In this document: piece by piece, positions 1,560-55,522 of the stretch
How the letters are laid out: the number at the start of each line of letters is the position of its first letter
How positions within the stretch are numbered: the stretch's first letter is position 1
Origin: Obrimoposthia wandeli
Taxonomy: Eukaryota
DNA length: 64,000 nt
Reading direction: 5' to 3'
Assembly (NCBI GenBank): GCA_977020255.1
Contig: CDROCS010000295.1
Span: forward strand, 62,001 to 126,000
Program-made: the position numbers and the translations under genes
The notes under the pieces: model-generated
What the model was told of the DNA's origin: nothing
Database searches by the model: none
Seen by the model: only the letters and a program-made list of their open reading frames with translations

Positions 1560-2420
1560 TTGAAGCTAATCCAGTATAATCAGGTTATAAGTCAGCTGGT
1601 TAGCTCGACTTTCTCACACATAACGATTGCTTCATCAGTTGTCGATGTAACAATATCTTGTTCAAATGTAATTCCAAATTCTTTTAAATGTTGTTGGACT
1701 ATTATCTGTGAGTAGGTGGATGTGTCCGGTCTAATCCACACCCCCTTGTCCTTTAAAACCGTGCATGTGTGTGGAGTGAAATTTCACTCCACACACCTAC
1801 ACGAAATTTCACTCCACACACATGCACGGTTTTAAAGGACAAGGGGGGGAGGGGGTGTGGATTAGACCGGACACATCCACCTACTTCTGTGTATTAATGG
1901 CATTACAACTGCCAAGTATTCGCAAAGTCCCAGGTTAAAAAATACTGATTAATTGCAATAACGCTTGTTTGCCATACTTGTCCACTCGTCTAAAGTTAGC
2001 AAAATCTTTCACCACTTTCCACTTGTTTCTTCTTTCCGTTCCTTAACATAATAAATTACTAATTCCATTATTCTAATCGTTCTTTTGTGGTAAATTAAAT
2101 CCTTTATTAGCAATAGATTCTCTTATGAAAGAGATTTTAGTTATTCAATTTACCGTGAAGCCATCTTCGAATATTAATCTTGCAATAATTTCATTGAGAT
2201 GTGTTTTTTAAACAAAATTTAGAATATTGGTGCTAGTAGTACACAGTTTTTGGTAAAATTGGCTATTTGGTTGGCATATTCATCATTCGAGCGCTTTTCA
2301 TGAAGAGTCAATGGTTCAACATGAGTGTCGTGGTGGATCCCTTGCACGACATCCTATGTGGTCACTTTTTGCAGACGACTTCATTTCTATTTCAAACTTC
2401 GGCAGTCTTTCGATTAAACA
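1560..2420 (-). pseudogene. hAT transposase remnant, interrupted by the mini-Polinton at 1711-1885
   Basis: Minus-strand fragments: BED-finger-like VVCKK*PHRMSCKGSTTTLMLNH, catalytic LTLDEWTSMANKRY, then LGSCNAINTQ|IIVQQHLKEFGITFEQDIVTSTTDEAIVM continuing across the insertion; contains stops and frameshifts. Confidence 0.75.
1711..1885. mobile_element. 175-bp non-autonomous Polinton-derived element made only of TIRs (MITE-like)
   Basis: Starts AGTAGGTGGATGTGTCCGGTCTAATCCACACCCCC and ends GGGGGTGTGGATTAGACCGGACACATCCACCTACT, essentially the same termini as the Polinton at 29216-38347. Perfect 6-bp TSD tctgtg at 1705-1710 and 1886-1891. Confidence 0.9.
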
Positions 2421-3779
2421 TTATTAATCAGGGATAAAAAAATATTCAAATGTTGAGAGTTTTTTTTTATAAATGTGTAACATCTACCAGCTTCTATGGA
2501 AAATATCTAATTAACTTCTCATACACACTTTAAAACATATAATTATAATCAACTTATCTTTTCACTCTTATTTAATTGTGCATATTCAGAATTTTTTCCA
2601 CTTTGAAGAAAACTATCCATTACCTACTTTGTTTAAAATAATAAAGGAAGCCCTAAAGAAAGAAAATCTAAATTCCACATATTGAAAACAGTGAATACTC
2701 ATTTGTTTTCTTGAATGAAATTTTAAAAGGGGAAAGAATTTTTCAGTATTTTTTGTGGACGCCTTAGGTTGTAAAGTTTATTCATTTTATTCAAATAATG
2801 AGCAAAAATATTCGAATAACGAATAGCAAATTTTAATCAAAGTAGACGAATGGTAGTGTTAAATATATTCTAGTGTTAAACACAAGCTAAAACAAGCCAA
2901 AACAAGATGGAAGATAAGTGCTTGTTAAAACTGATGCTTGTTATATCTGAAGTATTTATGTAATTTTAATGTACAATGTACAACAATAAAAAATTACCAG
3001 TGTGTTATTATATATTGTGGTTTATTACATATTTTATTCATAAAAAATAATGATTTTTAAAATGTATTACTTATAAGCAATCGTAGGCCCATTTTTACTG
3101 TAGTTAGGAGTACGCAAAAAACAACAAAAGTTATTTAACTATAATATTTCTTTCTTGAATTGAGCAAGAATCCCACTTTCAAGAACTATTTATTCCCGAG
3201 AAAACTATTTGGCTTTAGCAGTACAAATCAATGGCTGATAATTCTCGATTTCTGGCTTTGTTGCTACAATCACATTAAGATAAAAATAGCTTTGAGATTA
3301 ATCAGGTAAACTACTGCGGATATTGCGACTTTGACTGCAAACACGGTGTGTATCACAACAATTAAAATATTTGACAACTGGCGGTAAGAGTCTGTAAACT
3401 CATTTTTGTTAATGATAAATTAAAATAAACTTATGTCAATACACAGCGTGTAAATGAAGTCAGTGTAGATTTTCTTTTTAAGATGCGCCGAAATTGTACA
3501 AAAATAACAGCAACATAATTCAATATAAAAATAATATTAAAATATTTTAATGACATTATTGGTTATGCACGGGTTTCAAATGAACAGAAGTCAGTGTAAA
3601 TATCGTGTTAGTTATGGCTAAATTATAGTTATTCACCTTAAGGCGACGCAGTTGCAAAGAAGACATTGGAAAGTATATTTATAAATCTATTGAGGGAATT
3701 TGTAAACTGAGATAACAAAATCGCCGAATAATCAAGATTTTGCTAATTAATCGTCGTCATTTATATGTCATATGTAAAA

Positions 3780-7989: not shown

Positions 7990-9368
7990 GTCACAATTCA
8001 AAAATAAAATAGCTGGCAACGACTGCGATTCTTTCTTTTCCATCTCCAATTGTCCTTGTAGTGTCGGCCGACTTTCCCGCTCATCATCACCATCATCAAC
8101 TGATTCATCTGATTCATCTGAATTTCAATAGCTGTTTTATGATGAGATTCAGGTCGCAGAACTGGTGGACATGTTGTTTTTTACTGTCTAATAGCAGATC
8201 ATGCCTAACTTCTTCAATTACCTACTTCAGCAATGTATCGTATTATTTTGTTAGCAAACGCCGAAATAGTTTTTGAATTTTCGGATCTTCTGGATCAGTT
8301 GTTGGAAGCTCTCAGATAGCTCTGCAATAATGTTTGTATTGTCAACACTTATCTCAAGGCTTCGTGGTATTCATTATCCTGTCCCTAATCATCAGTGTCA
8401 TGACTGTTATCTTCCTCAGCTGCAGCAACAATCTGCTTGTCTATATAAAACTTATGTCACAACCAGTTGGATTCCATGTGCAAAACACAGCTGTTGCTCT
8501 ACATCAATAACTTGACCCACCTTTGTTATCACGCTTGCGTCGACTGTACTTATGGAGACGATGTTATTGTTTTACGACAATGCAAATGTCGTTAATTTTA
8601 CTTGCACAAGGTCAACACACTTTGTAACTGAAGGGAACCATTTCTACATTCCAGAACTTTGTTTCTCGGTCATGGACATTCCCGTTCATGTAACGCTGAT
8701 TTTTCACCGACGTCCATTCATCAAATATAGATTAAATGTATGACATTCTTTCTTAGGTTCTGTATATTCTCCTGTAATCAACGAACGAACTCGACTATCT
8801 TGAGGTTCTAGGCTTTTTCGAATATCGGATGACGTCACATACACTCTATGTGGTAATCCATCACAGGCCTTCATTCATGAAATAGCAGCTTGCAGACTTC
8901 TTAAAAGGTGATGGACTGGCAGACGTTCCATCTGACCGTTTTAAGACATCTATGTTAGACTTCGTTTTCAGATGGATGTGTAATCTTTTAGAAGAACATA
9001 CGAAACATTTTAAAACATTGTTGCATTGCTTACATTTTGCAAACTGTTCGTTTTTCTCTCAAGAAATATCCCCAAACACTATCAGTCTCTAAAGAAATAT
9101 AACCCAGTTTTCCAAATGTAGCCATTAAGGATTGAAAATAGTATCTTATATAAAATATCAATACTATAAGTGACGTTTTACTGAACATGAAGCCAGTTAG
9201 CCATTCATTTATCTCATCTGTTTATGATGAGTTTATTAAAAATATTATTCGTCTTTTATCTCAAAAATACGGTGGAATTTGGGAATTCAATACTGGGATT
9301 TCATTGCAGGATTGACATAGCGGGATTACACGATCTCAGAAGATTGAGATTTTAAGATTGGTCACTGC
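7990..9368 (-). pseudogene. hAT transposase remnant (BED finger plus catalytic core) with a CAGTG terminus
   Basis: Minus-strand fragments DSVWGYFL...AKCKQCNNVLKC...LHIHLKTK (BED finger), IFDEWTSVKNQRYMN, QLCFAHGIQLVV and LIQKIRKF; end ggtcactg at about 9368. Confidence 0.8.
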
Positions 9369-19272: not shown

Positions 19273-20589
19273 GGTGAAAAATAAATGTTTGGAAATATGT
19301 TTTGAAAATATAATATTAGATAATATAGAGCTAAGTCACAAGTAGTAGTCAATCATCAGTTGACTTTAAACTTTCTAATACATGAGAATTTCAAAAAGTG
19401 AAAATTTTATTTTCTAATAATAATTTAATAAAACAATCTCTATTTTTTAAAAATAAATTAATATATTTGACTGTTGTATAAATATATTTCGCTAATATGT
19501 GTTTGAATCTGTAAAAATATATAAATCATTTTAACATAAAGATAAATGTCCAATAAATAAATGTGCTATATTTAGCATTCATTCTAATATAGAAATGTAA
19601 TTGTTAGAGGAGTGCAAAAAATTTAATATAGCAAGCATATTTGTTAGACATTATACCTAAATTTATAAAAAAAAAGATTAGAGATTATATAAATATTTGA
19701 TTATATAAATATTTGATTTAAAAGATATTATAAAAAACATTAAAATGTCATTAATCTTTTACTTATGAATTCAATACAGACAAGGTAAGAGTATAGATAT
19801 AATGGGCGTACTAAACCATAAAACCATTCGCTTACACTCGTGCAAAAAGCAGTTTTAAAGATTCATCGCATTACATTATATCTTTATTTACTCAAGAACG
19901 TAAATCCATCAAGAATGTTTATATTTAACATATGTCATTAGCATATCAAATCCTGAGAAATCAGTATACTCTAAGATCTAAACATACAGTAATCATAAAA
20001 TCCCTTGTAAAAAATGACGAAATAATCTGAGGAGATACAGGTTAATAAGACTATGAAACCCAAACCTAATCACATATGAACTGATTACATTAATCCCAGC
20101 AAGTCCTCTGAGCTCCATTGTGATGTAAGGGATCATTAATTTCAAACTAAACAAAGATTTATCTCTCGCAACAAATCTAAATCATATATTTATGCATTAA
20201 ACCCTCCAAACATAAGATCTAGAATAAATAAAATTAAAGGAAGCAATCATCCAAGAGTAGCAATTAAGTAAAATCAATAGTTTCTCAACTAGTAATATCC
20301 CAATAAAATACGAGACTGAGAGAATACATGTGTGTTTTAGTGAAATATTAGATGCTTTCTAAAAAAAGTATAAACTAGTCATTAATTTAAATTCAAACAA
20401 AAAATAACTGATGTTCATACCTAGGAAAACGAAGAAACTACTGTAAAAATCTTTTAAACTCTTCAATTGATCTATAAAAATAAACTTTTTTGATGAAGTA
20501 ATGAGTTACAGAAAGAATAGAATGTAATAAGTGAAATTATCTAGATCAGGATATAATCTCGTATGGATCATAAACACAAGATATACATA

Positions 20590-21331
20590 TGTTGGGGTTT
20601 CTATATGAAACTGTTTTTCTAATATAGAACCTCTGAATGGAGGGCCCCAACGTGAGTTCTATAGACGCAGGACTTGTAGATGTTTGTGGCCTACTTAATG
20701 TTATGCTTGCCTTTCTCAATTCTTATCTGAAGGTTTGTTATTTCTAAATTTGAAGGGTCTATAACAACGCTGTCTAGTTGTAGGAAATCGTTTATTACTA
20801 AGCACACTAAATTAACACGTCTAATTACGTTCTAAAATTACAATACAATTCCTAAGACTTTCGCAAAGTCTCTACACAAGTGGGGATGATCCACGTATCA
20901 ATTTTATTTTAGGGTTGGTTGGTTACTAGAGTCTTTACTCTAAAATGTGACAAGGTTAAAATGGTGGGTTTTTGGAGAGCTGGTTGCTCTAAAATAGGGA
21001 ATGAGTTTAGAGAGCTGGTTGCTAAATATATGTGCTGATTTTAACCTTAACTTCGATTTTTATGTTCACTTTAATTTAGATGCACTTCCCAAACAATATG
21101 GTTACTTATTAAAATTCACGTTTAACTTTTAGATTCACTTACAAAAACAATCGGTTTACTTTATCAAAATTCACGGTTAACTTAAATTCGCTTTCAAAAA
21201 CAATCAGTTTACTTTATCAAAATTCACGTTTAACCCAAATTCGCTTTCAAAAAACAATCGGTTTACTCTATCAAAACTCACTTTCAACTCAAATTTGCCC
21301 CTCAACTCAATGTCACGAATGTTATTTAACA
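20590..21331 (-). mobile_element. LTR (probable 3' LTR) related to the LTR at 47214-49243
   Basis: The reverse complement of 20590-21000 aligns by eye at high identity to about 48790-49243, and both end AAACCCCAACA. The distal boundary (TGTT at 21331) is uncertain and no clear PPT was seen. Confidence 0.8.
21100..21290. repeat. Three to four degenerate ~55-bp tandem repeats within the LTR
   Basis: Unit aaaaacaatcggtttactttatcaaaattcacg(g/t)ttaac...aaattcgctttc. Confidence 0.8.
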
Positions 21332-22253: not shown

Positions 22254-22559
22254 TTATTGTTGGCTGTCGGGCTGGCCTGTGCGTCGCTCCTCCACGCAGA
22301 ACATGCACCAGCAGTCGCAGATGTCCTTCCAGCAGTGTACGATGGGTACCACTGCTTGAAAACTGTCTCGGTCGTATACGAAGTGTACCGAGAAGGATGC
22401 CCTGCACATCGGGCAGGTTGGGTAGTCGAGGGGTTTGTTGCTGTTGACAACTGGGATCCATGTCTCGAGGCATTGGACATGAAATTTGTGTTCACAGTTG
22501 TTTGGTTTGGTGTAGAGGTCCACGATGTTCTCGTAGCAGATGGAACATTCTCCAGACAT
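22254..22559 (-). CDS. RING-H2 protein with C-terminal CWK-x4-CWC-x-FC motif
   Basis: CSICYE...CEHKFHVQCL...CPMCR plus HCWKDICDCWCMFC. Confidence 0.9.
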   Translation of the reverse strand: MSGECSICYENIVDLYTKPNNCEHKFHVQCLETWIPVVNSNKPLDYPTCPMCRASFSVHFVYDRDSFQAVVPIVHCWKDICDCWCMFCVEERRTGQPDSQQ

Positions 22560-22619
22560 TGCTGTGAGAGGGGTGATGTTGAATTTGGGCTCAATTGAGG
22601 GCTGGTGGTTGTGTGATGT

Positions 22620-22919
22620 TTACACAAAAGTGGTCGAATCTTGTCGTTCTGCTGTACAGAAGAAACACCAACACTCTCTCAAATTCTTCCAACATAATAC
22701 CACCTGTACATCTACATCCTCTTGGTTGGGTTCTATTATGATGAACTTTGTGAATTGTCTTCTGCATACAGGGCAACGAGGGTATGTTGGATGTAGGAAC
22801 TCTCCATAAGTTCTGATCCATTTTGATAAACATTCCTCGTGGTGTAAGTGGTTGCAGGTATTGGGTCTTGTTCTTCGTTCAGTTATATCTTCCAAACATA
22901 TTGGGCATTCCTCTGACAT
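22620..22919 (-). CDS. RING-H2 protein with C-terminal CWK-x4-CWC-x-FC motif (paralog of 22254-22559)
   Basis: CPICLE...CNHLHHEECL...CPVCR plus LCWKNLRECWCFFC. Confidence 0.9.
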   Translation of the reverse strand: MSEECPICLEDITERRTRPNTCNHLHHEECLSKWIRTYGEFLHPTYPRCPVCRRQFTKFIIIEPNQEDVDVQVVLCWKNLRECWCFFCTAERQDSTTFV

Positions 22920-23046
22920 TCTAAATACGTGATGACAATTAATTTCTACATGAATTTTATATAATGCTACACTTGTTTATACAATCGCTTCTACATATTT
23001 CTACATATTTTTACACTCTTATTTATCTACAACCTCCTCTGACTTG

Positions 23047-23601
23047 TCATGTTTTGATGGGAGGCGGAGGTAAGGGTCGCAATTCCACTTCCTCTATCGT
23101 GGGTTCAGTACAGCATCGCAGTTCTTTGCATTTCCGTCGTATTCTTCGGCATATCTGACTGCCTTTCACGCACACGACTGTCAATAGAACTACTGCAGTT
23201 GACACTACGGCCATTACAATTAAAGCATTGACTGCAGTTATCCCGCTGTCTGAGGATTGGTAATCGTACTTTATTTTGTTGTTTGTCGGTTTGAGTGACG
23301 TCTCAATTGGTGCTTTTCGGTTTCCGTGTATTATGTCCGATTTTCTAATAAATCGTGGATTCGGATATTTTGTTTTTTGTCTAACGGGTATTATTATTCG
23401 AGATTTGAGATCCAGTGGAATCGTTCCCTTCACTCTTGTCCTCTCGATAATTGTGCTTTGGTTTCTGGAATCGAGCTCTTTTCCTTTCACTTCTGCCTTT
23501 TTTATGACTGCTTTTGACTTCTCGGAATGGCGTTTACTTCCTTTCACTTTTGCCTTCTTTATGACTGTGTTTGGTTTCCCGGAATTGAATTTGATGCTCA
23601 T
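23047..23601 (-). CDS. Membrane protein fragment (basic region, TM helix, Cys/Pro-rich tail)
   Basis: Hydrophobic ALIVMAVVSTAVVLLTVVCV followed by CRRIRRKCKELRCC...RPLPPPP; the frame continues upstream to a stop near 23700. Confidence 0.6.
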   Translation of the reverse strand: MSIKFNSGKPNTVIKKAKVKGSKRHSEKSKAVIKKAEVKGKELDSRNQSTIIERTRVKGTIPLDLKSRIIIPVRQKTKYPNPRFIRKSDIIHGNRKAPIETSLKPTNNKIKYDYQSSDSGITAVNALIVMAVVSTAVVLLTVVCVKGSQICRRIRRKCKELRCCTEPTIEEVELRPLPPPPIKT

Positions 23602-23945
23602 ACCTAGTCTACGAAATCGACGTGTCTGGTATCTTAGAGTTATATAGAATATTTCACCCGTTATTACTATGATTACGGTAGAGGTCTCTTTAGCATAACT
23701 GGAAATTCAGTTACATAGACATTCAGCATCATAATGTAGTACTAACATTTGGGTGGTATTGCGAAGTTGATTCCGTCATCTGGATTGGGACACGCCACTG
23801 TTACCTGGTCAGTTTCTAACAATCTGAAGAATAAATTAACAGAATTCCATACAGCTTTACGTCGTTTACCTGTGACCATAATCCTGTCAATAACTTTCCA
23901 GATGCGCTCGTCGTTAGGCAATATTACTGACTTTGTTCGGATAAT

Positions 23946-24242
23946 TTAAATAATCCGTTTCTTTTTTGATATTTTTATTCGTAGGTATAATACCTTTTCA
24001 TAATAGAATAGTATCAGTCGGTAGTAAAGTGTATGTTTGTCAATCTTTATTTCAATCTGGCGGATGACATACAATTTCTGATCGACATTTTCGGTTGCAG
24101 ATGTTTGTAGTTGAATGTCTACTATGTGATTCGTTTTTAGTAGAGGTATTTCTATGTATAACGCACGTATCGTATCTTGTCTCCATTTACTGATCATAAT
24201 ATCGTAACCAGCCTCAGTCGTGGTGATTTGTATGATCAGCAT
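23946..24242 (-). CDS. Hypothetical protein of the accessory cassette
   Basis: 98-aa ORF packed head-to-tail with its neighbours on the same strand; no recognised motif. Confidence 0.4.
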   Translation of the reverse strand: MLIIQITTTEAGYDIMISKWRQDTIRALYIEIPLLKTNHIVDIQLQTSATENVDQKLYVIRQIEIKIDKHTLYYRLILFYYEKVLYLRIKISKKKRII

Positions 24243-24250
24243 GATTCCTA

Positions 24251-25114
24251 TTATCGTTCGGTTCTGAATCTCAGGAACTTCTCAGGGATAACTAAAGTTA
24301 CTATATGTTCATATATCGTTGGCTGATACTCCGGTGCTGGTTCATTTATGAATGCTGGTCTTGGTATATTTGTGTCGAATTTTTGTAAATTCATTTGACC
24401 TGTTCGTCTTGTGAGATCGTGACGTGTTTTTTTTGATTTCAACTCGATCTTTGTACAACAAAACAAGATGAGCAATATTAATATTATGATTCCGATAATC
24501 AATGCCAGTATTGGATTAACCAATTCTAGAATACCATAACGTATTGTTTGTATCTCTTTACTTTTGATGGTTAATATTTTAAATTTATGTGTACTTTGGT
24601 TGGACATGTCACTGAGAAGTACTATTTTAGTTTGTCCAAATGTGTATCCTTCACATGTGACAACACTAACTCCATAATATCCATTTAGTGTTTTCATTTC
24701 TGTCGCGGGTATTATACATACTCGTTCTGGACACCCTTTCACACACATGATCATCACGGCTTTACTGTGAGACGTCTTGATTATTTCTTGGGTGTTGTCT
24801 AGATTTCTCAAATGTAGATTATATTCAGCTAGCGTCATCAATTCAGCTTTACCGATTGGAATGGCTTGTAGTACCAATCCAATTACTACTCCGTAGATCA
24901 ATCCTTGTGCAACAGTGCACAGGCCCTTGATTGTTCTTTTGCAAACAGTTTTGATTATTATTCGTTTGAGATAAATCTGTTTCTGGTTATGTCGTTTTGT
25001 CTTGGTTGTCTGTCGTTGCTTTGACATTTCTTCGATTCCGGTTTTCCGATAATCAACTGTACCGGTTTGCCTTGTATCACCAGCTTTCCGAATCCATTTT
25101 TGGCGGACAGGCAT
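24251..25114 (-). CDS. Type I membrane protein-like ORF
   Basis: Signal-like GLIYGVVIGLVLQAIPIGKA, ~100-aa Cys-containing ectodomain, TM ILALIIGIIILILLILFCC, and a tail with PAPEY and IYEHI. Confidence 0.65.
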   Translation of the reverse strand: MPVRQKWIRKAGDTRQTGTVDYRKTGIEEMSKQRQTTKTKRHNQKQIYLKRIIIKTVCKRTIKGLCTVAQGLIYGVVIGLVLQAIPIGKAELMTLAEYNLHLRNLDNTQEIIKTSHSKAVMIMCVKGCPERVCIIPATEMKTLNGYYGVSVVTCEGYTFGQTKIVLLSDMSNQSTHKFKILTIKSKEIQTIRYGILELVNPILALIIGIIILILLILFCCTKIELKSKKTRHDLTRRTGQMNLQKFDTNIPRPAFINEPAPEYQPTIYEHIVTLVIPEKFLRFRTER

Positions 25115-25320
25115 GTTTTATGTCCTTCCATCGTTTCGATTATCACTCTCTTACTTCCATACTCACGTGTTTTGATGACATCGCTGCCGAATACATACGT
25201 CGTACCTTTTGTATCCGCATCTTTTTGTATTTCCTTTACAATTCGTTTTCTTCGTCTGCATCCGGCGAACGTTGCTGATATTCTATCAAGTGTGCACTGT
25301 CGGTCAACTTCGTAGTCCAT
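24958..25320 (-). CDS. Hypothetical protein, probably a frameshifted upstream part of the cassette polyprotein
   Basis: 120-aa ORF overlapping 24251-25114 in another frame. Confidence 0.35.
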   Translation of the reverse strand: MDYEVDRQCTLDRISATFAGCRRRKRIVKEIQKDADTKGTTYVFGSDVIKTREYGSKRVIIETMEGHKTCLSAKNGFGKLVIQGKPVQLIIGKPESKKCQSNDRQPRQNDITRNRFISNE

Positions 25321-25699
25321 TTCGGAATTGATTCAGTAGTCTGTTTTGTGAATAATAGATCGCTTCATTCACTATGTTCTCCTCGATCCTTTCGTCTAGA
25401 TAAACAAGTACCTGGTTTGTTGGTCCGTTTGGTTTCTTCATTTTTACAAACTGGAATCTTTCTCTGTCGGTTCTTATGGATCAGAAACATTTTCTGATTA
25501 GCCAAACATCGATCAGTCCTATCAACACTAATAGCATCATCAGTGTCGGTGTATTGTACTGCATGATGTAGTTGTGGATTTATTTAAACCAGGAACTATT
25601 TCCATGGTTGGAGCCTATCTCTTGTGCTCCCGTTGTTGGCATTAGACAACTTAACAAGCCTAGTGCTAGCAATCTTCGTTACTGATAGCTGGGCACTGT

Positions 25700-27390
25700 T
25701 GTTGTAACCTCATTCATTTCTCGTTGTTGTTTCCGCCTTTCGGAGTATTTCTCTATTTCTCGAACGAGTAACGGTTTGAATTCCGTATCTGATCTATTCT
25801 GTTTGATGTAGATCATCGCTTCCTCCGGTGTATGACCATGGTACACCTATGGTAGGTGCTAACATTGTACTTTTTTCTGATATATCAGAACGCCATTTCC
25901 TTCTGTGACTTCGGCTTGGATTGTTTGAGTCAACTTCCTCAGGTATTGTTGTGCGTCGTTTACCTCCCGATTTGAAGCATGTATATAACGTGTAGTGTCA
26001 TCTTCAGTATTTTGACATATACTGATTATCTCGTTTTCGACTTCAACAATGTTAATCACTCGGTTGATACTGTGGAACTTTAATCCAGCTGTATCTATAT
26101 CTCCTGGGTGACATAGAAATACTTTCGGCATTATCTGGGTGATTTTGTCGACTCCTGCTAAGAATAATCCGGTCAACGATAGTGATTGGAGGAAATTATT
26201 TTCCTTTGGATCCTCGGGGATGTCATCCATCCGTATCTGTTCTTGCAACAGGAGTTGATAATTTGACAATTGTACCAAAAAATTAAGGTTTGGATTCACG
26301 ATACTTCGTCTTTCTTGTAGATATTTCAGCGCTTCTAGTACCTGCATTCGTCTACTCTTTATTAGATATGCTAATACCAAGGTTGCTGATCTAGAGATTC
26401 CTTTCTGACAATGTACCAACACTTTTCCTTGGTTTTGGAGTTCTTTGTAAATTATCTCGTTTGTTTCTCCGAACCATTCGAGAAGATTAGCCTCCATTGA
26501 GTCTTTCACTCTTAATGTCATAGCTCTGATTGTCTCATTGTAACATTGATCACATATGTTATCCCTTTTTCCAACAGTTTCTTTTTGTCTATTGTGTCTT
26601 CCACATTTCCGAGGTATAACATATCTTGAATTATCTCACTCATTGGTGGCATCAATTCTGACTCCTCAAGTTTTAGTCTTTCTAATCGCTTCTCTATTTG
26701 TTCATCTATGATGAATAATTTCGCCAGTTTCTTTCTTCTCAGCATTCGTATCGCTGGAGAGATATTCATCTTTGTCTCTGATGTCTGTTCCTTTGGTAGT
26801 TCCTCTTCCGACTCGGTCTCTTCTGCAGATTTAATTCGCCTTTCTTGTATATTCTGTTTCATGAAGTCTATGTTTCGTCTTTTTCTGCTTTCTTTAGCGA
26901 ATTCAACCTCCACGGTTCTTCCGAATCGCTCTATTATGTTATCTTCGGATTCTGTTGACTCTGGATTGCTGCTTTCAGGTTCACTGTCTTGACTAGACTC
27001 GCTCGAAGGGTGTTCTGGTATGTCTGTTTGAACTAAAATTAATGAAGGGGTTAGAATAATTGGATTGACTGGTCCTGAGTCTCTGTGAATCGGATACAGT
27101 ATTACACAATCCTTAAGTATCTCAACTTGGAACTGTGCTCCATAGCACATGACGATTGTTTCCAATTTACCCATGATGGACAATCAATCGAAATAGGTGA
27201 CATTCAGCTTAGATATCGGTGTGTTCGCATAATTCACTAAATTGAATCGTATCTCGGTCGATAATGGCCATCGATATTTTAGTAAAATTATAATTTCGTC
27301 GTTTATCGATGTAATCACACTTGGCGCGGATGATACTATTTCAGCATGATATTTTGGCTGGAATGAGTTTGTCATTTGTTCTCTGATCAT
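25700..27390 (-). pseudogene. Tandem dual-specificity phosphatase (catalytic DUSP plus degenerate second DUSP domain), disrupted
   Basis: PMSEIIQDMLYLGNVED...GITYVINVT (ORF 26518-27183) frameshifts into VLVHCQKGISRSATLVLAYLI...RSIVNPNLNFLVQL (ORF 25859-26521). Second domain: ITQIMPKVFL...INRVINIV...GVLIYQK...HTPEEAMIYIKQNRS, lacking the HCxxGxxR motif. ORF 27184-27390 is in frame upstream through a single TGA. Confidence 0.9.
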
Positions 27391-27433: not shown

Positions 27434-28165
27434 TCTGGACTTTGAGTGAAGCCAATATGTTGTTTTATGTTTAATAAATATTTTGAAAAATAATTTTGTC
27501 TCGTATTTTGTTTTTTTTTCCTCTAAATTATATATTGATCTGACCGATTTTTCTCCTCTAAATTCTAAAACTGACATAGATATTTATCATGTAGTAATTT
27601 ATTAATCTAAAATCTTTCTTAAAAATAGTAGTAATATTTGAAATCTCGTCTGCGAAAAGCCGCCGGGGTCAATATGGATTCTCGTGGTCTTCTCTAACCA
27701 CTTTTGAGATTAGTGGGAAAATTTTTAAAAAATATGGTGGGGGGGGGAGTACCCCTCTTTCTTCCCCCTTTGAGTGGGATGAAGACACACATACACGAAA
27801 TTTCACTCCACACACATGCACGAATTTTCACTCCACACACATGCACGAATTTTCACTCCACACACATGCACGAATTTTTACTCCACACACATGCTCGGTT
27901 TTAAAGGACAGTAGGGGGGTACCCCCCTTCCTTCCCCCTTTGGGTGGGATGAAGACACACATACACGAAATTTCACTCCACACACATGCACGAATTTTCA
28001 CTCCACACACATGCACGAATTTTTACTCCACACACATGCTCGGTTTTAAAGGACAGTAGGGGGGGGTAGAAAATCTTTCTATACACCAGCACGAAATTTC
28101 ACTCCACACACATGCACGGTTTTAAAGGACAGTAGGGGGGAGAGGGTGTGTTGATTACACCTACT
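27434..28165 (+). mobile_element. Orphan Polinton right end (direct-orientation copy of 37800-38347)
   Basis: Near-identical to 37800-38347 from gagtgaagccaatatg through the 25-bp cacgaaatttcactccacacacatg repeats, ending ACACCTACT; no matching left end or TSD found upstream. Confidence 0.9.
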
Positions 28166-29433
28166 CATACATGCTAGGCTGCATCAATTATGGATACAAC
28201 CCTATTGTAAGAATCCTCTGTCTTTCTTAACGACGGTTTAATCAAATATATCGCCATTTGTATTCTCGATTTTTAAACGCGCAAAAAATCGTCCCTCAAC
28301 GACGATTCGAGAAATTTCTTTCTCATTGTGCCCAGCTTTTATCGACTGTTTTTTTACAGTTTTGATCATGAATACGGCAATTAATTAGTTAGAATGGTAA
28401 ATATTACTTCTAAAGACGCCATTTAGGTATTCAGCTGCCTATTTAACATCGCTTTATCACGCACTTTACTACCGAATTATATATTTATTTCAATCCAGCA
28501 ATTAAAGGGGCATAATGAAAACATGGACAGAAATTAATATGTTGAGAGCTTTTGTTGCAGTCTATACCTTTGTCTTTCAGATACACTTTCTATTTTTAGA
28601 GTTAATTAAACGACATATAATTTTTCTTCAGCCTTATTAAAAAATAAAGAATTTAATTTTAGATTTGAAATATTTAGTGACATCATTTTTCTCAACTCTA
28701 TTTGCAGATCCAGTTTTCTCAACAGGCCCATATTCACAAAGTGCAGTAAAACTGGTCAGCAAAAATATCATAATGCACTAAAGATATGAAGAAATATTGC
28801 ACCGGAAAACAAAATTATGGAATCACTAGTTTGTCTCAGAACTTTTCATTAAAACATAAAATTGTTAAAATTAGATAGATCGTTAATTTCAAAATAGTAT
28901 ATATTAAAAGCACTTTATACAAGGTGTATCGAAATACAAATCATTAAAGAAAATGCTACATAACATATATTTCTTTTATACATTCTTCTCAATTTCATTT
29001 AGATATCTCTTTTCCTGATTATTCCATAAATTTTATCATGTGGCGGGGCGTTATCTTGTTGAAATTTAGGCCATAGTGCACTTCTAAAATATGCACAATG
29101 GAGTATTTTGTAATTCTTCTTCAATTTTGGCTCTTCGGGAAAATATGGTCATTCGCATGTAATCGTATTTTCAGTTGATTGTCCTCTAAAGATAACTTAA
29201 AAATTATTAGATAAGAGTAGGTGGATGTGTCCGGTCTAATCCATACCCCCTCCCCCCTACTGTCCCTTAAAACCGTGCATGTGTGTGGAGTGAAATTCCG
29301 TGCAGGTGTGTAGAAAAAATTTCTACCCCCACCCTCCCAAACACTCAAAAAAATAATTAACTCCATATAACACCCTCCATATAACACCCTGACATTATGT
29401 TCACTGAATCCTGATGACAATACGCTATATAGC

Positions 29434-31612
29434 ATGCCTAAGGATAAGGATTTAAAATTCAGGGATTGGGCAAAATGCATACCCGTGGAATTCAGGGTGT
29501 ATGCAGATTTTGAGTCAATTTTAGCATTGCTCGACCAGTATGAGAGTATTCACCTACCGGCTTCGGCAGGACTACTATTCTTAGGCCCCAATATTACCCA
29601 GTATCATAAATTTTCCGGTCCAAATTGTATTTTAGATTTTATGTTAAAATTAGAGGAATTAGGAACAACAATTGTCAAACCGTGGTATGATCTCAATGCT
29701 CATCAAGCAATGATCATGACAGGCATAGACTGGGTTAATTTTAATTCTTGTAGATTATGTTATTTGTGTGGAACCCAGTCTAAGTTAGTCAGAGATAACG
29801 ATCATGTTACGGGGCGATACTTGGGAGCGGCGTGCAACCTTTGTAACCTTGGCCGTCGTCTCCCTAAAAAACCACGCATTCCCATCGTGTTTCATAACCT
29901 CAAAGGATATGATTTGCATCATATACTTAAATATGCGTTGGGTACATTAAGCTCTTGGGAAATTTCATGTATACCTCAAACTTCAGAGAAATATTTATCT
30001 TTAACTGCATATACTGAATTCTGCAGTTTAAGATTCATAGATTCTCTGCAGTTTTTGAGTGGTTCTTTAAAAAATCTAACGGCATCTTTAAATGCATGGC
30101 CAATTACACAGTCAGTGTTTCCAGCTTCGGTTAACGATAAGGGGATTTTTCCGTAAAAATTTGCGAAACCTTTTGCAGATTTAGAAAATACAACTGAAAT
30201 CCCACCCATAACTGAATTTGAGGGTGTAAGTCTTCAAGACTATAATGAGGCCCGTACATTTTGGGCGAATAATTGTCGAAATCTTTTAGAATATATGCTT
30301 TATTATATGAAGTTAGACATTTATCTTTTAGCTGATGTTTTTGAGTCCTTTCGTGTAAAATCTTTAGCAGAAGATGGGCTAGATCTCATGCATTTCTTTA
30401 GTTTACCTGGTCTTTCATGGGCAACAGCAATAAAAACTCTTAAAATTAATATCGAGTTACTGCAAGATCCCGCGATGTATCAAATGTATGATTATGGTAT
30501 ACGCGGTGGAATGACTTTGTCAACAAACATCATGTTGTCAAAAATCAATCCATGGAGATTCTGTACATCGATATTAATAATTTGTATGGGTGGGCGCTTA
30601 CTCAACCTCTACCTCATGCCAACTGTAAGTGGGTTTATGATGAGGAAGAGTTGAATAATTTGATGACAGATTTGGCTACTGTTGATACAGTTTCATCCGA
30701 CGTCGGCTATTTGGTTGAGGTTAAAAATCCCTCCCAATGTGCATGATAAATTAGATGATTTTCCAGTAGCGCCTGTTCATCAATGCCCACCTAATTCAAA
30801 GGTTAAGAAATTATTGTTAACCCATGAAGACAAGTTGAATTATGTTGTGCATTGGCAGCTTCTTCAATTCTACTTAAAGTTGGGAGCGAAAGTTACTCGA
30901 ATTCATCGTGCTATAAGCTTCAGTCAAAACTTTGTGTTTAAAGACTATATTGAGAAGAATTCAAGAAAACGTAATTTGGCCACTAGCAAATTCAATCGAG
31001 ATTTTTACAAGTTAAAAAGTAATAGTCTCTTTGGAAAAACTGTAGAGGACTTGCGGAAACGTATTTGTCTACCGTTTACCAAGTTATATAGGTCAGACGG
31101 TTTTATACATTTCTAAACTCAGAATGTACGAGCTTCAATACCTAGAATTAGAGAAATATCGACAAGAATTCAATTGTGAGATCAAAATCGCAGCTGGGGA
31201 CACTGACTCTTTCTTTTTAGAATGTAAAAATGTTAGTTTAGATAATCATTTATTACTGGCAATGTTTAGGGACAACTTACTAGATACCCATAAATATTCC
31301 GCTAACCATCCTCTACACTCTATGAGTTTAAAGGACATTATCGGGAAATTTAAGGATGAAAGCGAGGGACAGGTTTCGTATGATGATTGTATTTTCCTAC
31401 GCCCTAAATGCTACAGTTTACATGCATCTAATAATACATGTTCAATGAGAGTAAAGGGTGTGGGAAGAAACAATCTTACACATGAGGCCTACCGGAAAGT
31501 TTATGATACTGGGTGTATTGAAAGCGTTGAGCAAACTAGATTTATTTCAAGAGCCCATCAACTGTATTTCCATAAATCAACCAAAATCGCTTTGAGTAGT
31601 AATGATGACTAG
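29434..31612 (+). pseudogene. polB: Protein-primed family B DNA polymerase (frameshifted, N-terminally truncated)
   Basis: VYADFES (ExoI), CYLCG...RDNDHVTGRYLGAACNLCN (Zn/EndoVII-like insert), FHNLKGYD (ExoII), YMKLDIYLLADVFESFR (ExoIII), YIDINNLYGWA (A), KLKSNSLFGK (B), GDTDS (C), spread over ORFs 29434, 30295, 30552, 30682 and 31124. Confidence 0.95.
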
Positions 31613-31929
31613 CGCTTTTGGGTAGAAAAGAATGCTAGCCTGGCTTATGGACACTTCCGAATTTAAACGGTTTTCATTTTATTTTATTTTTTTTAGTTTT
31701 GTTTTTTTTAATTTTAGATCCCTATGGCACCTTGACTCTAACTTTTTGTTATTTCAATACTTTTTTAGGTTGGACCTTATCTTTGCTGACATATCTCATT
31801 GTGATGTTGTGATTAATAAATGTATTCAAAAAATTTGTCTTATGTCTTTTATTATTTTACCCTTATATTTTTAGAGATTTAAAAAATAATTAAAAATAAA
31901 ACATTAAAAATATTTATTTTTATAACACA

Positions 31930-32193
31930 CTAATCGTTTTGCAACGATAACCATAAAATACATAAATGTCCACAGTTTCTCGTCGCAGGATCCTGATATT
32001 GTATCTTGTTGTAAAATACTCTTATTCGTCCTTTTTGAATAGTCGAAACAAGTTTGTGTGGATAATACATTGCAAGTGGATCAAATACATGTATTGTCCA
32101 CTCTCTAACATAAATAGCCATCCAATGTTCTCCTGGTAAATTCGAAGTATGAGTATTGATAATGTAACCTCCAGATTGAAAAAATGGAATCAT
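31930..32193 (-). CDS. Polinton adenain-like cysteine (maturation) protease
   Basis: NTHTSNLPGEHWMAIY...FDPL...YQDPATRNCGHLC (His/Asp/Gln/Cys catalytic set). Confidence 0.9.
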   Translation of the reverse strand: MIPFFQSGGYIINTHTSNLPGEHWMAIYVREWTIHVFDPLAMYYPHKLVSTIQKGRIRVFYNKIQYQDPATRNCGHLCILWLSLQND

Positions 32194-32311
32194 ATCAATA
32201 GGATAAACTCCATTGAATTTATCACCCAGGACCTTCTCTGCTGATTCTTGTACTTGTTTTGAACTAAATAAAAATTAATAAATATAAATTTAAAATATGT
32301 CTTACTCCATT

Positions 32312-33500
32312 CTATAATATGACAGTTCTGTTTTTATTGATTTGTATTTCCGAATCAAATACTCCGTAAATAAGCACCGTAGTAGGATGTGTTAAAGCTG
32401 CATTGAACTTAATTTCTAGTCGTAAATTTCCATCCTTTGGTAGTTGACATTGGTTTATATCAAAGTCTGGTGCCAAAACAAATGTGAAGAACGGGCAGCT
32501 GCTTTTAAAGTCAGTGAAAGAAATACCATTGTTTATATTTTTATCTAGTTGACCCACATTCCGAATAATAGATTGGGTATAAGCCAAAGCATAAGCGTCA
32601 CCTTCGAAATCTGTTTTATATGTTTCGCGATAATCAGTATTTCTTGAAAGTGTCACTGAACCAACATTAAGATTGTCAAATTGAGTTGCATCTGTCGTAT
32701 AATTTCCTAGAAACTTTGCAGTTTTTTGAAAAGAAATTAAAATGAATTTCGGTAATCTTACATCACCAAAAATTTGATCCTTATTAAAAGCTTGTGTACC
32801 CGTACCTAAAGAATAAGATATAAGTTTAGTTTCTCTAATAGGATAACAAGCATTGTTTTTTTCCATTCCTATATTATGTGCCATTAAAACTGATTGCTCG
32901 GTTTTAACTCTTCGAACATACAATTTTGCATCCAAAATATCAAGTCTAGGTTTTAGAACGTCAAAGAAAAATTCCATTTATTACGTTTCAAACGAAGATG
33001 TACATTAACACCAAGAATTAAATATTGCGGTTGTTCAAAGAAATTCAATCTCAAAGACCCACACATTTCGTAAGCTTTAGAACCTGCAATCCATTCTTTG
33101 CGAGTTGCAACAGTTTTATCATAACCAATGGTTGCCAAATTAGTATTTTGAGTATCAGTACTATAATTCAAAAGACTTTCAATCAAAGCTTTATGAGCAT
33201 AGGAAGAATTTCCACCTTCAATTTTGACATTATTAAGAGTAACAATGGCATCATTAAATAAAGAATTAAAGGGATAATTTACAGGTGTTACATCGGCATT
33301 TTCATCTAAATTAGTACCATCCCGATTTAATACTTTTATTTGAACATAAAGCAAAGTATCATTCAAATCTAAATACTCGCTATTGGAACCATTAATATTA
33401 AATTCTAAATCGGTTAAAGTGGTTCCTGAAACTGAGTTAACTAGGAATATTTCTTCAAAGGAAGCATTATCTACAACAGTGGAAGTGGTTTATCAAAAAT
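32312..33500 (-). pseudogene. Polinton major capsid protein (double jelly-roll), frameshifted
   Basis: LEFNINGSNSEYLDLNDTLLYVQIKV, NYPFNSLFNDAIVTLNN, LDAKLYVRRVK, RLPKFILISF, GNLRLEIKFNAALTHPTTVLIYGVFDSEIQI. Confidence 0.9.
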
Positions 33501-33529
33501 ACACAATTCAGTTTTGGCGCAACTCATTT

Positions 33530-33860
33530 TGCAAATATTGTTCCTTCAACATTCTTACGTTTGTTTATATTGATTTTTTGCTTCTTTTTACTTTTAAATC
33601 CACTACCTCCTTGGCTTTTATTTGATTTACGTTTTCTAATCAAATTAGCAACTTCAGGTAAAACATTATCAAGTTCATCAAGCGCATGCTTCTTAAAAGT
33701 TGGTATTAGTTTATTGTCTTTAGATGAAAGGTAATCCTTTCATAATTTTGATATAAATCGCCTGAGTCTCTTTAAAAGACGAAAGGCAAATCTACCTTAT
33801 GTTCTAAGCCAGCCAGATCCATATTGTTTACCAACAAAATATGGTAATTCTCCACCTTGT
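33530..33860 (-). pseudogene. Polinton small basic QxGxG protein (PZ-like putative core/membrane-active protein), disrupted
   Basis: Minus-strand GKQYGSGWLRT*GRFAFRLLKRL...KSQGGSGFKSKKK located between mCP and MCP. Confidence 0.55.
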
Positions 33861-33879
33861 TGGCTTTGTCTATAAGCTT

Positions 33880-34915
33880 CAATTATTGCTGGATTCGCCA
33901 TTTTGTTTTCTTAAATGTATTGTTAAACTTGTCTTGGCCTCGTGCGTGAAATCTATTAGTTGTCCGGAATCATCTCTAATATTTACTTCAATATTGTTTA
34001 TAGAAAAAAGAGAAACTGGAAGATACATTGGCTGATCTATACACATACCAACAGCGTCCCCATCTCTAGTTTCATTTTTAGATATCTATATTGTTCTCAA
34101 AAGTGGAACTCGCTGTCCTCCTACAAGCGTTGGTTCTATTAAATTAGTATAAATATATAAATGATTAACAGCATTTAAAAGTTTTGCCTTATTTTTAGCT
34201 TTTATGGTTTTTATTGTATGGGTTTCAAAGGTATTTCTGTTTAAACCAAGGTTTTTAGCGAGTTTATCATCAAATGAAACTCGTTTTATATTGCTCTTTA
34301 CTGTAAACGTTATTTTACCATTTTTTAATGTTTCACATTTATCCAAATATTCATTACATTCCTTCTGTATTAATTTACAGAAATTCACTTCACTGTCTAT
34401 TTTATAATCTTTTGAAAACATTTTCAGTTCCACTACAGTCTTTGGTCTCGTTTCAACTAACAACACTCTTACTACTCTACTAGGAACATTTTAAAACATT
34501 TTAGATGAGACAATATTAGATCTCTTCATACCTACTACATGTCCACTATCAAAACCGAATTGAAGAGCTTCTCTTCCAGATTCGAATATAATTTGAATAG
34601 GTTGAAAATGTTTTGATCGATTTTTAAATCTGACTTTGTTTTTTTTCATATATTACTTTCACTTCTTTATCTATACAATTGTAAATCAAACCCGATCACA
34701 ACTTTAGTTGTTTTTTCATGATCAACTTCTTTTGTAAACGAAATACGTGAGTTTTTTCTGATAGTAATTGGAGAATAATAAAAAGAAAATTCGGTTAAAG
34801 CCGCTTCCCATTCTCCTTGGAGATTTATAGGATTTCCCAATCGATAATAAAGCTACTAGCGTAATTATCTGGTTGAGTCTTCGGACATCCGTTACTAGGT
34901 AAAACCATATACATA
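33880..34915 (-). pseudogene. Polinton minor capsid (penton) protein, frameshifted
   Basis: N-terminal MVLPSNGCPKTQPDNYASSFIIDWENPINLQGEWEAALTEFS, central LYIYTNLIEPTLVGGQRVPLLRTI, C-terminal NNIEVNIRDDSGQLIDF. Confidence 0.85.
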
Positions 34916-34919
34916 GACT

Positions 34920-35830
34920 TCATATTATATTAGATGCTGATATCCAAGTTGGGTCTGAATAACCATGCCATTTAACAAAGTATTGTTTATGTTTACGGGC
35001 ACCCTTAGATTTTAATATTTTTTGAATACGGAAAACGCTAGGTTTATTTGATATTACTTGTAGTTCTTGCTCGTAAAATTTACCGTGAACGATATTATTG
35101 TCAGCATCTTTAATAGTATACATTATTGGATTACTCTTTTAATCAATTTTACTTATACAAAATATTTCATCGCTCCAATTCTGATTAAAGTTTTTAATAA
35201 ATGGAGTAGAGCTAATTTTCGAAATTCGAACATATTCGTTTTTCTTATATTTAGCTTTTTTAATTTTTACTTTTTTATTCCTGTTCATCCAAATGTCCAT
35301 AGAGTTTTTATTAGTAACATCAACAGGTCTCATTCCCTTGAGACCTCTATGTTCAGAGTGATTATATGCATGTATTATTTTAGGTAAAACTTGGATCCAT
35401 TTTTTATTTCCTTCTTTTGTGAAATACTTTTTATCAAATACCTAAATCAGTTTGCACATTTTGTGGAATGTCCAATTTTAATATTTCTTTAATGGCTTCA
35501 AGCATAGCTAATGAAGACTTTGCTTTAACTGGAATTGCACGAGCAAACCTGCTAAATACATCAATACATGTTAAAATATATCGATATCCCTTATTAATGG
35601 AAGAATATGGGATCATCTCCATCAAATCCATTTGCCATAAATTATTAGGACTGCTGGTTTTGTAAGCTCTAGTTGGAAACCTTCTTCTCATCGGCTTGTT
35701 CAGACTGTAGGCTAACTGGTCGCTCAGCCATTTCTGCGTTTTCTTGTAATTCTGTTTTTGTTCTTTTTGCTAATTTTGAAACTCCTGTATAGCCAATTGG
35801 ATCTTTTGGATTGAACCATATCTTCTCCAT
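34920..35830 (-). pseudogene. int: Polinton retroviral-like integrase with C-terminal chromodomain, frameshifted
   Basis: WFNPKDPIGYTGV, LWQMDLMEM...YRYILTCIDVFSRFA, VQTDLG, VRISK...NWSDEIF, VHGKFYEQELQ, QYFVKWHGYS. Confidence 0.92.
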
Positions 35831-35916
35831 TACAACAATTTGAATAGAAAGAAAATTTAGGTTTAGGTAAAGAAGGGCTAGCACCCATATCTTTAGCTGA
35901 TTTTAGAAATAATTGT

Positions 35917-36246
35917 TTATGAACGTGTCGCAGCTATAATACTACTGATAATTGAAGCAACAACTGGAATAACAGCCCCTATGAAACCACCATTCTGTTT
36001 AAGAGTAATATTTCGTTTTCTTTTTTTACTTTTTACATTAGCAATATCTAGAAGAGTTTTTCTATATTTCTTTAATATATTTTTCCGATTTCCAACTTTT
36101 ACTCGACCCAAAACTATATTATATAAAACTTCCAATAAATCATCTACAACAAAGGATGGAAATGCTTTAAGAATAATCATTCTCTTATTAGAAGAGGCTT
36201 TGACTAAAGCTTTAAAATAGGGTATGCTTCTTTGTATTTTCTTCAT
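35917..36246 (-). CDS. Conserved Polinton small protein with QNGG-F motif and amphipathic C-terminal helix
   Basis: Basic N-terminus, LEVLYNIVLG, then LKQNGGFIGAVIPVVASIISSII; resembles an adenain cleavage site followed by a hydrophobic peptide. Confidence 0.7.
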   Translation of the reverse strand: MKKIQRSIPYFKALVKASSNKRMIILKAFPSFVVDDLLEVLYNIVLGRVKVGNRKNILKKYRKTLLDIANVKSKKRKRNITLKQNGGFIGAVIPVVASIISSIIAATRS

Positions 36247-36261
36247 TTTAATAAAAAAGGT

Positions 36262-36417
36262 TCAATTTAAATATTGTTTATATTCGAAGCCATTTAAGTT
36301 TTTTTTATTTTTAACTACAGATTTGATTAATTTTTTCACTTCTTTTTTCTTAATGATTCTTTTTTTTGATTTCTTAGATTTTACTTTACGTTTTACTATC
36401 AACTTAGTAAAAGGCAT
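36262..36417 (-). CDS. 51-aa lysine-rich protein (not in the ORF track)
   Basis: MPFTKLIVKRKVKSKKSKKRIIKKKEVKKLIKSVVKNKKNLNGFEYKQYLN, sitting between the ATPase and the QNGG protein. Confidence 0.45.
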   Translation of the reverse strand: MPFTKLIVKRKVKSKKSKKRIIKKKEVKKLIKSVVKNKKNLNGFEYKQYLN

Positions 36418-36424
36418 TGCGAAT

Positions 36425-37077
36425 TTATTTTTTATAATTGTTCTCTATTTGTTTATAAACAGTTACTCCCTTAGAATTAAATATGTCTGTTAAAACACGT
36501 AAATCATCTGGGCAAGCTTGTGTAAAGTCAATAAATATATACCCATGTGCTTGTTTAGCAGCATCGTGGAATGAATCAACTAGAAAGTTCTTATTTTGAG
36601 GAAATGCCTGTCTGGCCACAAAATCAACAACTGTTTGATCTCTAGGATTATTAAATAAAACTAAGTAATGTACATTAAGATTTCTTGTTCTATGGTGACC
36701 TCCTTGGTGAAACAGATTTTGAGTGATAAATATAACTGTTACTTCACGATGTCTTGCAATCTTTGTAAATAAATTATTAAATTCCGATTCCTTGTTAGCC
36801 TCCTCATACAAATCATCAATTATTACTACATCTTCTTTTTTCAATCTTTCACACAAATTTGCATCAAATCCTTCAATAAATTTTATACCCTTCAACTTGC
36901 AAACTTCATTTTTGTTAACCCGCTTTCCCCTCCTCCACCATGATGCCAATAAATATTTTTGAAACTAGATTTGAAAAGAGATTCATTTTGCAATAATTTA
37001 CAGACGAAATGTGTCTTTCCACTTCCACTAGGGCCAACTATTTGAAATACAGCATTATTATTTAGTTCCATTGCATA
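36425..37077 (-). pseudogene. A32/FtsK-like packaging ATPase, frameshifted near the N-terminus
   Basis: MELNNNAVFQIVGPSGSGKTHFV (Walker A, upstream frame), VVIIDDL (Walker B), ITQNLF...RTRNLNVHYLVLFNNPRD. Confidence 0.92.
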
Positions 37078-37108
37078 TACTCTTTCATTTTTAATATTGT
37101 TTATGTTA

Positions 37109-37381
37109 TCATAGAAGTTTCCTTATTGAAATGTACAATGTTAGAGCTATTGTAGATGAAATACAAAAATTAATTAATGAATATTTGGCTATAATTTTAT
37201 TTATTTGTGTACGATTTCTAAATTCTCGAATAACGTGTGATCTAATCAATATTTCAATGTTATCTCTTGTTATATCATTATTTTTTAATTCTGATAAAAT
37301 TTCTTTACCCCTAATTTTTCCAGAAAATATTTCGTCGGCAAGCCGATCCACTTCATTGTCTCTATTTATAGTATTATTCAT
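37109..37381 (-). CDS. Polinton hypothetical protein with C-terminal hydrophobic segment
   Basis: ATG-initiated 90-aa ORF co-oriented with the ATPase; tail YSLINFCISSTIALTLYI. Confidence 0.4.
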   Translation of the reverse strand: MNNTINRDNEVDRLADEIFSGKIRGKEILSELKNNDITRDNIEILIRSHVIREFRNRTQINKIIAKYSLINFCISSTIALTLYISIRKLL

Positions 37382-37530
37382 TCAAAACAATAAGTTTAAA
37401 CGGGTTTGTTTATAGAAAAGATAACAAGATGTAATAAGATATATTTTCTAAAATCAAATCAACAATGTTTGGATAATCAAAATATTTCAATCCCAATATC
37501 ATATTAAAGAGGCATCAAATTATACTAGTT

Positions 37531-37743
37531 ATGAATCCTGTGAAAATATCAAAAGTGCAGAATAAATATCTCATCGAAATTTTAACAACAACTGATATTG
37601 ATCAATTGAAAAATATTTTGGGATTTTACATTCCTGATTATGTATATGAAAGAAATTGTTTCCAGCTTGAAACTGATCCCGGTGTGGATTTTAAAGATGA
37701 TCAAGGATATTTGATTGCTCCAATTCTAGATGAAGAACTATAG
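37531..37743 (+). CDS. Polinton hypothetical protein
   Basis: ATG-initiated 70-aa ORF inside the element near its right end. Confidence 0.35.
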   Translation: MNPVKISKVQNKYLIEILTTTDIDQLKNILGFYIPDYVYERNCFQLETDPGVDFKDDQGYLIAPILDEEL

Positions 37744-49243: not shown

Positions 49244-49251
49244 TATTAAAT

Positions 49252-54055: not shown

Positions 54056-54181
54056 GGTTGGGCAAAATTAAGCGACTACGCTAAAACCATTGTGGAAATG
54101 AATGAAGACGATGAGGAACAATGCCATGAGAATCGTCAAAGAGAAAATAAAAAAACCGTCCGAAAGAAAGAAACAATCAAC

Positions 54182-54640: not shown

Positions 54641-54642
54641 AA

Positions 54643-55410: not shown

Positions 55411-55522
55411 GAAAACTTTACATCATGAATTTTGCGAGTTTTGTATTGTTAAAAAAAAAATAAAGCAAAAAGAACAGAAAACTGAATGTATAGTCGAATA
55501 CCAAATCACACGTAAAGAGATT

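Follow-up and report, generated by a model that had tools for sequence, protein, structure and literature searches.

When nothing but the two ends of a Polinton is found at a locus, have those ends moved as a unit of their own, or did a long copy insert there and subsequently lose its interior? This question is raised by a 175-bp element near the beginning of the window, by which we mean the whole 64,000-nt stretch of Obrimoposthia wandeli DNA analysed here, in whose coordinates all positions are given. To our knowledge, there is little direct evidence on how Polintons excise, replicate and integrate. According to the available part of PMC5499653, the Polinton life cycle still awaits experimental characterization. 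An earlier note, made from the letters alone, had read the element as a minimal unit inserted by the Polinton integrase.

An ends-only derivative of a resident Polinton family

The element, its target site duplication (TSD) and the parts of its two arms, each derived from a terminal inverted repeat (TIR), are as follows:

1705-1710, plus strand: left TSD, TCTGTG
1711-1885, no strand assigned: TIR-only Polinton derivative of 175 nt, delimited by its match to the TIRs of the 9.1-kb element and by its fold
1711-1785, plus strand: short arm, consisting of the TIR tip, a C-run 8 nt shorter than that of the long arm and one 25-nt unit ending in the octamer
1778-1785, no strand assigned: junction, the palindromic octamer GAAATTTC, common to both arms
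1778-1885, minus strand: long arm, a complete 108-nt TIR with two 25-nt units, from alignment
1786-1802, plus strand: 17-nt loop, the body of the long arm's second 25-nt unit
1886-1891, plus strand: right TSD, TCTGTG

The element opens with AGTAGG and closes with CCTACT, and all of its 175 nt match the TIRs of a 9.1-kb Polinton copy located at 29216-38347, which bears out the Polinton-derived, TIR-only nature previously claimed for it. The long arm agrees with the right end of that copy in 101 of 106 columns, while the short arm corresponds to a TIR truncated past its first 25-nt unit. The perfect 6-bp TSD was likewise confirmed, with a chance probability of about 1.6e-4 for the TCTGTG repeat, which does not extend to 7 nt. 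Folded as DNA, the element forms a 75-bp stem with 0 mismatches and one 8-nt bulge (1842-1849), closed by the 17-nt loop, at -93 kcal/mol (z -20.75), and none of 200 shuffles was equally stable. Between the arms there are 0 substitutions in 75 bp, whereas the two ends of the 9.1-kb copy differ by 5 in 105 (Fisher p 0.076).

Logan contigs from two runs (X1 and X2) of one sample were aligned on 1,050 nt, yielding 31,429 contigs in X1 and 25,497 in X2. Both junctions between element and flank were present in contigs of the two runs with 0 differences (X1 records 2 and 8). The interior rests on the assembly, as the 16 contig pieces listed (of 57,228) leave it unspanned as a whole. Together with a 459-N gap in the window (54182-54640), from which the assembly is seen to be scaffolded, this would agree with an assembly error by which a long element lost its interior through the merging of its two TIRs over an 8-nt overlap. 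However, an 8-nt indel distinguishes the two arms, and independently built contigs contain further short fusions. Moreover, an overlap of 8 nt is far below usual assembly word sizes, and we consider such an error very improbable. As a Polinton derivative made up of ends only, the 175-bp element is genuine and cleanly delimited.

A Pfam scan covered 60 ORFs of the window. The further family members, together with the gene remnants of the 9.1-kb copy, are:

27434-28165, plus strand: orphan right end of the Polinton family, with a variant tip ending at 28165
29210-29215 and 38348-38353: GATAAG, the TSD of the 9.1-kb copy
29216-38347, no strand assigned: decayed 9.1-kb Polinton with the same termini as the 175-bp element
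29371-31113, plus strand: remnants of a protein-primed PolB (DNA_pol_B_2; ORFs 29371-30153, E 2e-6, and 30667-31113, E 4.6e-9)
32315-32977, minus strand: probable major capsid remnant (from an Atlas score of 0.98 only)
35437-35769, minus strand: rve integrase remnant (E 9.5e-9)
36428-36964, minus strand: putative A32-type ATPase remnant (Pox_A32, E 0.0023, below the Pfam cut-off)
62393-62550, plus strand: orphan left end of the Polinton family

With a 6-bp TSD, TIRs with AG...CT ends, a protein-primed PolB and a retroviral-type integrase, the latter two surviving as broken remnants, the sequence at 29216-38347 is a decayed Polinton. Its two ends, with tips AGTAGG and CCTACT, are identical in 100 of 105 columns. 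In the Atlas clusters to which the probable capsid ORF is matched, DJR or NCLDV capsid families occur in 10-16% of the members, and a PDB search with this ORF returned no match. The ORF at 31933-32274, a candidate for an adenovirus-type protease, had neither a Pfam nor a PDB match. A chromo-domain match (34923-35030, minus strand, E 2e-4, under the cut-off) follows the integrase remnant on its downstream side.

The family TIR measures about 108 nt and is built from a tip, a C-run and two 25-nt units, each ending in the octamer. Five tips in the window agree in all of their first 20 nt, namely the two of the 175-bp element and those at 29216, 38347 and 62393. The other three family members in the window all reach beyond the TIR, and a TSD search for partners of the orphan ends at 28165 and 62393 found none in the window. 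Duplicated subterminal blocks of 25-nt units were observed at the right ends (38081-38314, with a 117-bp period, and 27744-28064); the two left ends are without such blocks, and the family ends are therefore asymmetric outside the 108-nt TIR. At 62028-62075, 320 bp upstream of the orphan left end, lies a 48-bp piece that corresponds, in inverted orientation, to 37633-37680 of the 9.1-kb copy. Searched with the 20-nt tip, viral contigs and metagenome contigs yielded 0 matches each. A 17-nt tip had 17 matches among prokaryote genomes; these were set aside, being fewer than the roughly 70 estimated by chance in 596 Gb.

The 9.1-kb copy carries CTACTGTCC and departs from the 175-bp element immediately past the C-run. 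That the CCTTGTCC variant might be private to the 175-bp element was rejected, given that contigs with the window's letters at 1842-1844 outweigh the alternatives, a weight that clipping may inflate. Because the CCTTGTCC variant is not private and the 9.1-kb copy has CTACTGTCC, this copy is, judging from the letters, a relative of the 175-bp element and probably not its direct parent.

Non-autonomous Polintons, reportedly described by Kapitonov and Jurka in 2006, are usually kilobases long, whereas the 175-bp element is without an interior. Like them and like Tlr1, the element has its parent's ends and no core genes. It shares its termini and the 6-bp length of its TSD with a Polinton of the same genome, encodes neither the PolB nor the integrase of an autonomous Polinton, all 175 nt being TIR, and is by structure a non-autonomous Polinton derivative. 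Tlr1 itself is "sometimes" viewed as a non-autonomous Polinton (available part of PMC5499653). The core Polinton features are given as a 6-bp TSD, a TIR, PolB and integrase (in the available parts of PMC6431247 and PMC8097293), and the element has the 6-bp TSD and the AG...CT ends in common with autonomous Polintons/Mavericks. The family TIR of about 108 nt falls in the range of 46-1,447 bp stated for vertebrate Polintons, and the AGTAGG tip of the 175-bp element and the 9.1-kb copy is one letter off the Polinton (AGT)2 motif (both from the available part of PMC8097293). Unlike autonomous Polintons, which measure 12.7-24.6 kb, the element is gene-less and only 175 bp long.

Short, non-coding and bounded by TIRs and a TSD, the element is also MITE-like in structure, MITEs being a class for which lengths of about 100 bp to more than 1 kb are stated in the available part of PMC8576890. 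It resembles cut-and-paste MITEs in its two TIRs, its little or no interior, its capacity to form a hairpin and its use of the parent superfamily's TSD; it differs from them in that its parent is a self-synthesizing element. As to many size-homogeneous copies at independent sites with TSDs of their own, the contigs give hints in both directions for the 175-bp form. Our literature search, with Repbase, supplements and most subscription papers outside its reach, found no MITE-sized Polinton derivative. The available text of a study on insect polintons reports long ones without polB and a piggyBac MITE and no MITE-sized Polinton (10.1101/2025.02.07.637071), and that of a Hessian fly study reports fragmented Mavericks of 600-4,500 bp (PMC8504770).

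The interrupted hAT transposase relic

On both sides, the element is flanked by parts of a hAT transposase:

1613-1710, minus strand: downstream part of the hAT transposase relic, in register with the part to the right of the element
1886-2421, minus strand: upstream part of the hAT (ZBED1-like) transposase relic, with stops and frameshifts

A Pfam scan of four hAT flank translations gave 0 matches, and a word-based search with one of them found no match. A HMMER search with a stop-free 38-residue piece identified one relative, P0001 (71% identity, E 2.2e-5), which led to P0002, a protein of 633 aa with PF27039 and PF05699 (a ZBED1-like and a hAT dimerisation domain). The alignment of P0002 takes in the flanks left and right of the 175-bp element, over 2421-1613 of the minus strand (tblastn E 5e-23 and 1e-13). 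With protein homologues standing in for the empty site, the reading register was compared across the element. Against P0001, the right piece corresponds to residues 28-39 (4 of 12 identical, weak alone) and the left piece to residues 41-70 (22 of 30), and the spacing between them in P0001 is exactly the two codons expected if only the element and one TSD (181 nt) had been added. The exact spacing corroborates the earlier view that an older hAT gene was split and that its frame resumes across the element.

Owing to its stops, its frameshifts and its low contig depth, the interrupted hAT is regarded as a relic. In the one sample, no empty allele was seen, the flank contigs running unbroken through both TSDs, and a joint skipping just the 175-bp element was absent among the 15 joints shown of 41.

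A second, more diverged hAT transposase relic is located at 8431-8722 on the minus strand (E 1.9e-7), and a mariner-type transposase fragment at 39440-39748 (Transposase_1, E 4e-11). LTR-retrotransposon-like remnants extend over 50697-61919 (gag, zinc knuckle, protease, RT and RNase H, interspersed with two RING-finger ORFs). A FLYWCH/MULE element with inverted ends of about 500 bp (95% identical) lies at 57246-60453, between the RT and RNase H remnants of a retroelement. On the minus strand, the stretch 22257-26635 holds RING-finger and dual-specificity phosphatase ORFs. The window further contains an inverted match of 440 bp (88%) between 20587-21023 and 48808-49246, 28 kb apart, and tandem arrays at 48074-48758 (56-bp unit, 12 copies) and 49365-50180 (48-bp unit, 17 copies).

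The junction octamer and two possible routes to the element

Inside the element, a piece of the left TIR is joined to the full right TIR at GAAATTTC, which occupies the centre of a perfect 30-nt palindrome (1767-1796). Since GAAATTTC is its own reverse complement, it constitutes an 8-nt direct repeat between two inverted TIRs, and it is the longest microhomology between left and right in a model of the family ends (8 nt; the runner-up has 7 nt). A join of unit 1 to unit 2 from the ends of the 9.1-kb copy predicts 179 nt with the same architecture as that observed.

Homologous recombination between inverted repeats inverts the interior, and deletion of the interior, as opposed to its inversion, needs palindromic microhomology. 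The collapse by recombination between TIRs, which the earlier note had named as the alternative to its own reading, would have to proceed through palindromic microhomology and not through homologous recombination. Judged by the letters they would leave, two routes are equivalent: a deletion between the TIRs of a long copy, or a free end snapping back on itself, for which the terminal 33 nt are predicted to form a 9-bp stem (-3.5 kcal/mol) of the required geometry. The snap-back route would require a fresh integration of the short unit, while the deletion route can occur in place. Because the junction is a direct repeat between inverted TIRs, an in-place deletion yields the identical sequence and keeps the TSD; the TSD is therefore not proof that the 175-bp unit jumped. 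What survives of the claimed integrase-mediated insertion of a minimal unit is that something with these ends integrated, and the TSD does not extend that evidence to the 175-bp unit itself.

On balance, we favour a collapse of a long Polinton in place, a reading to which we assign about even probability. A longer family member, autonomous or not, would have been integrated into the dead hAT by the family's retroviral-type integrase, giving the 6-bp TSD. Slippage or an aborted gap repair would then have deleted its interior at the locus itself, joining two copies of GAAATTTC, one closing the first 25-nt unit of one TIR and one closing the second unit of the opposite TIR; the remnant would retain the TSD and the tips at both ends. 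That the integrase made the TSD we infer from the shared ends and the TSD length; it is the best ascription under both main readings, and the deletion would postdate the insertion. Deletion between short palindromes inside inverted ends is known from the nearly precise excision of Tn10 and from the formation of Ds from Ac by gap repair. As in the proposed collapse, both tips and the TSD stay in these cases; hosts and elements are different, and the likeness would be mechanistic only.

The collapse in place is favoured because many differing single-copy junctions exist, long substrates are abundant and the best available microhomology was used. On the other hand, the identical arms (0 differences in 75 bp versus 5 in 105) leave little time for two events, and no long element at the hAT site was seen in individuals or relatives, one sample being covered. 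The identity of the arms would agree better with a mobile mini-Polinton, in which the 175-bp unit formed elsewhere and was then integrated as such, in a MITE-like manner, by Polinton proteins putatively supplied in trans; this we regard as plausible, if not quite at even probability. The unit could be the product of such a deletion elsewhere in the genome, or of snap-back, where the terminal octamer would pair with the octamer of the previous unit and prime copy-back, and the 9-bp stem of the 33-nt end fold is suited to the latter.

Short fusions and the abundance of family ends

Forward joints from left arm to right arm account for 10 of the 15 joints shown (41 in all), a count that leaves out the joints 1311 to 1707 and 1702 to 2257, which lie outside the element, and three opposite-strand or backward joints. 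Seven of the ten occur at single-copy depth (50-72, against a flank depth of 47-58 in X1), two at 2-3 x and one at about 50-fold. Four have 8-22 known letters between the arms, and the other six are marked "between: not known". If their arms are otherwise as in the 175-bp element, the joints with 8-22 letters imply units of about 80-125 bp. The earlier proposal that the element defines the cis-minimal substrate was not upheld, as such arm fusions would imply shorter units and a natural element gives an upper bound only; on protein-primed replication, which the earlier note had also brought up, these observations have no bearing. The recurrence of short derivatives with differing junctions suggests repeated, independent repair events.

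The fusion of 1785 to 1866 reached a depth of 2604 in X1 and 243 in X2, that is, 43-56 x single copy. Together with the two joints at 2-3 x, it argues against a mere collapse in place, in that short forms can multiply once formed. Its overlap of 2 letters suggests a direct join, the same column being 0 in two rows where the reference alone gives 2 and 5, and the roughly 50-fold depth in both runs together with this overlap would speak for a mobile mini-Polinton. Against this, the joint hints at copies that share a flank, carried inside another repeat, rather than at independent sites; it is marked "between: not known", and its shorter side has 21 letters, only 20 of them inside the element. 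This junction form is absent from the window.

A possible second copy of the 175-bp architecture, which would likewise count for the mobile unit and against the collapse, is provided by X2 record 11. This contig aligns without a gap across 1762-1845 and differs at 7 of 84 positions, compared with 18 or more for any ordinary end in the window; it may represent a diverged second copy or a separate collapse involving the same octamer. However, it extends only 16 nt beyond the octamer on the short side, under the 31-letter bridging bar, and is 8% diverged. A second, near-identical copy of the junction was not seen among the contig pieces listed; its contig would measure about 52 nt, shorter than all 16 of them.

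The number of family ends bears on the same question. Summed contig depth at the tips amounted to 62,000-102,000 x that of the flanks, which is not a copy number and may be inflated up to 31-fold by overlapping short contigs; depth thereby sets a floor of about 2,000-3,300 family ends. Flank contigs break after 7 and 6 flank letters shared with another end, and a likelihood calculated from these breaks gave about 15,000 ends (range 2,400-53,000), on the assumption that insertion has no target preference and that no branches arose from errors. Loose ends are numerous behind the right tip (133 contigs in one and 99 in the other of the two X1 rows given) and show poor agreement (0.40-0.41), as expected for unrelated flanks. 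In the available parts of the respective sources, Polinton counts average 22 in vertebrates with 287 as the highest named (PMC8097293), reach 1,724 in corals (PMC11131425), and stay below 10 in Anolis, with no non-autonomous copies there (PMC3014272). Estimated at thousands of ends, the family is unusually abundant compared with these published animal counts, and an end count so far above them would favour the mobile unit, but summed contig depth does not give a number of copies. Separately, a contig joint from 1886 to 1710 (depth 92) leads from a right tip through 27 letters to a left tip and is formed by two family members inserted almost tail to head at another site.

A very high number of ends is also typical of MITEs of cut-and-paste families, and Polinton-derived ends could in principle have been moved by an unrelated cut-and-paste transposase. 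We regard this as highly unlikely, as the same tips and a 6-bp TSD bound an element with PolB, rve and putative ATPase remnants, and the nearest relatives by integrase, the Ginger elements, are bounded by TGT ends and TSDs of 4 bp (according to the available part of PMC2836005).

A broader and more tentative proposal, to which we assign rather less than even probability, is that the family ends number thousands to tens of thousands of copies and belong in part to MITE-sized, gene-less units of about 80-200 bp, the 175-bp element among them. These units would have formed at the palindromic octamer by deletion or snap-back and would have been re-integrated by the Polinton integrase with 6-bp TSDs. 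If so, Polintons would spawn true MITEs. Should such units move, integration would dispense with genes in cis and take no more than about 100 bp from each end; among the AG...CT MITEs with 6-bp TSDs that are as yet unclassified, some could then be assigned to Polintons. Should they be immobile, palindromic microhomology inside the TIRs would provide a precise route from 10-kb virus-like insertions to scars that mimic MITEs, and such scars would be a warning for annotation.
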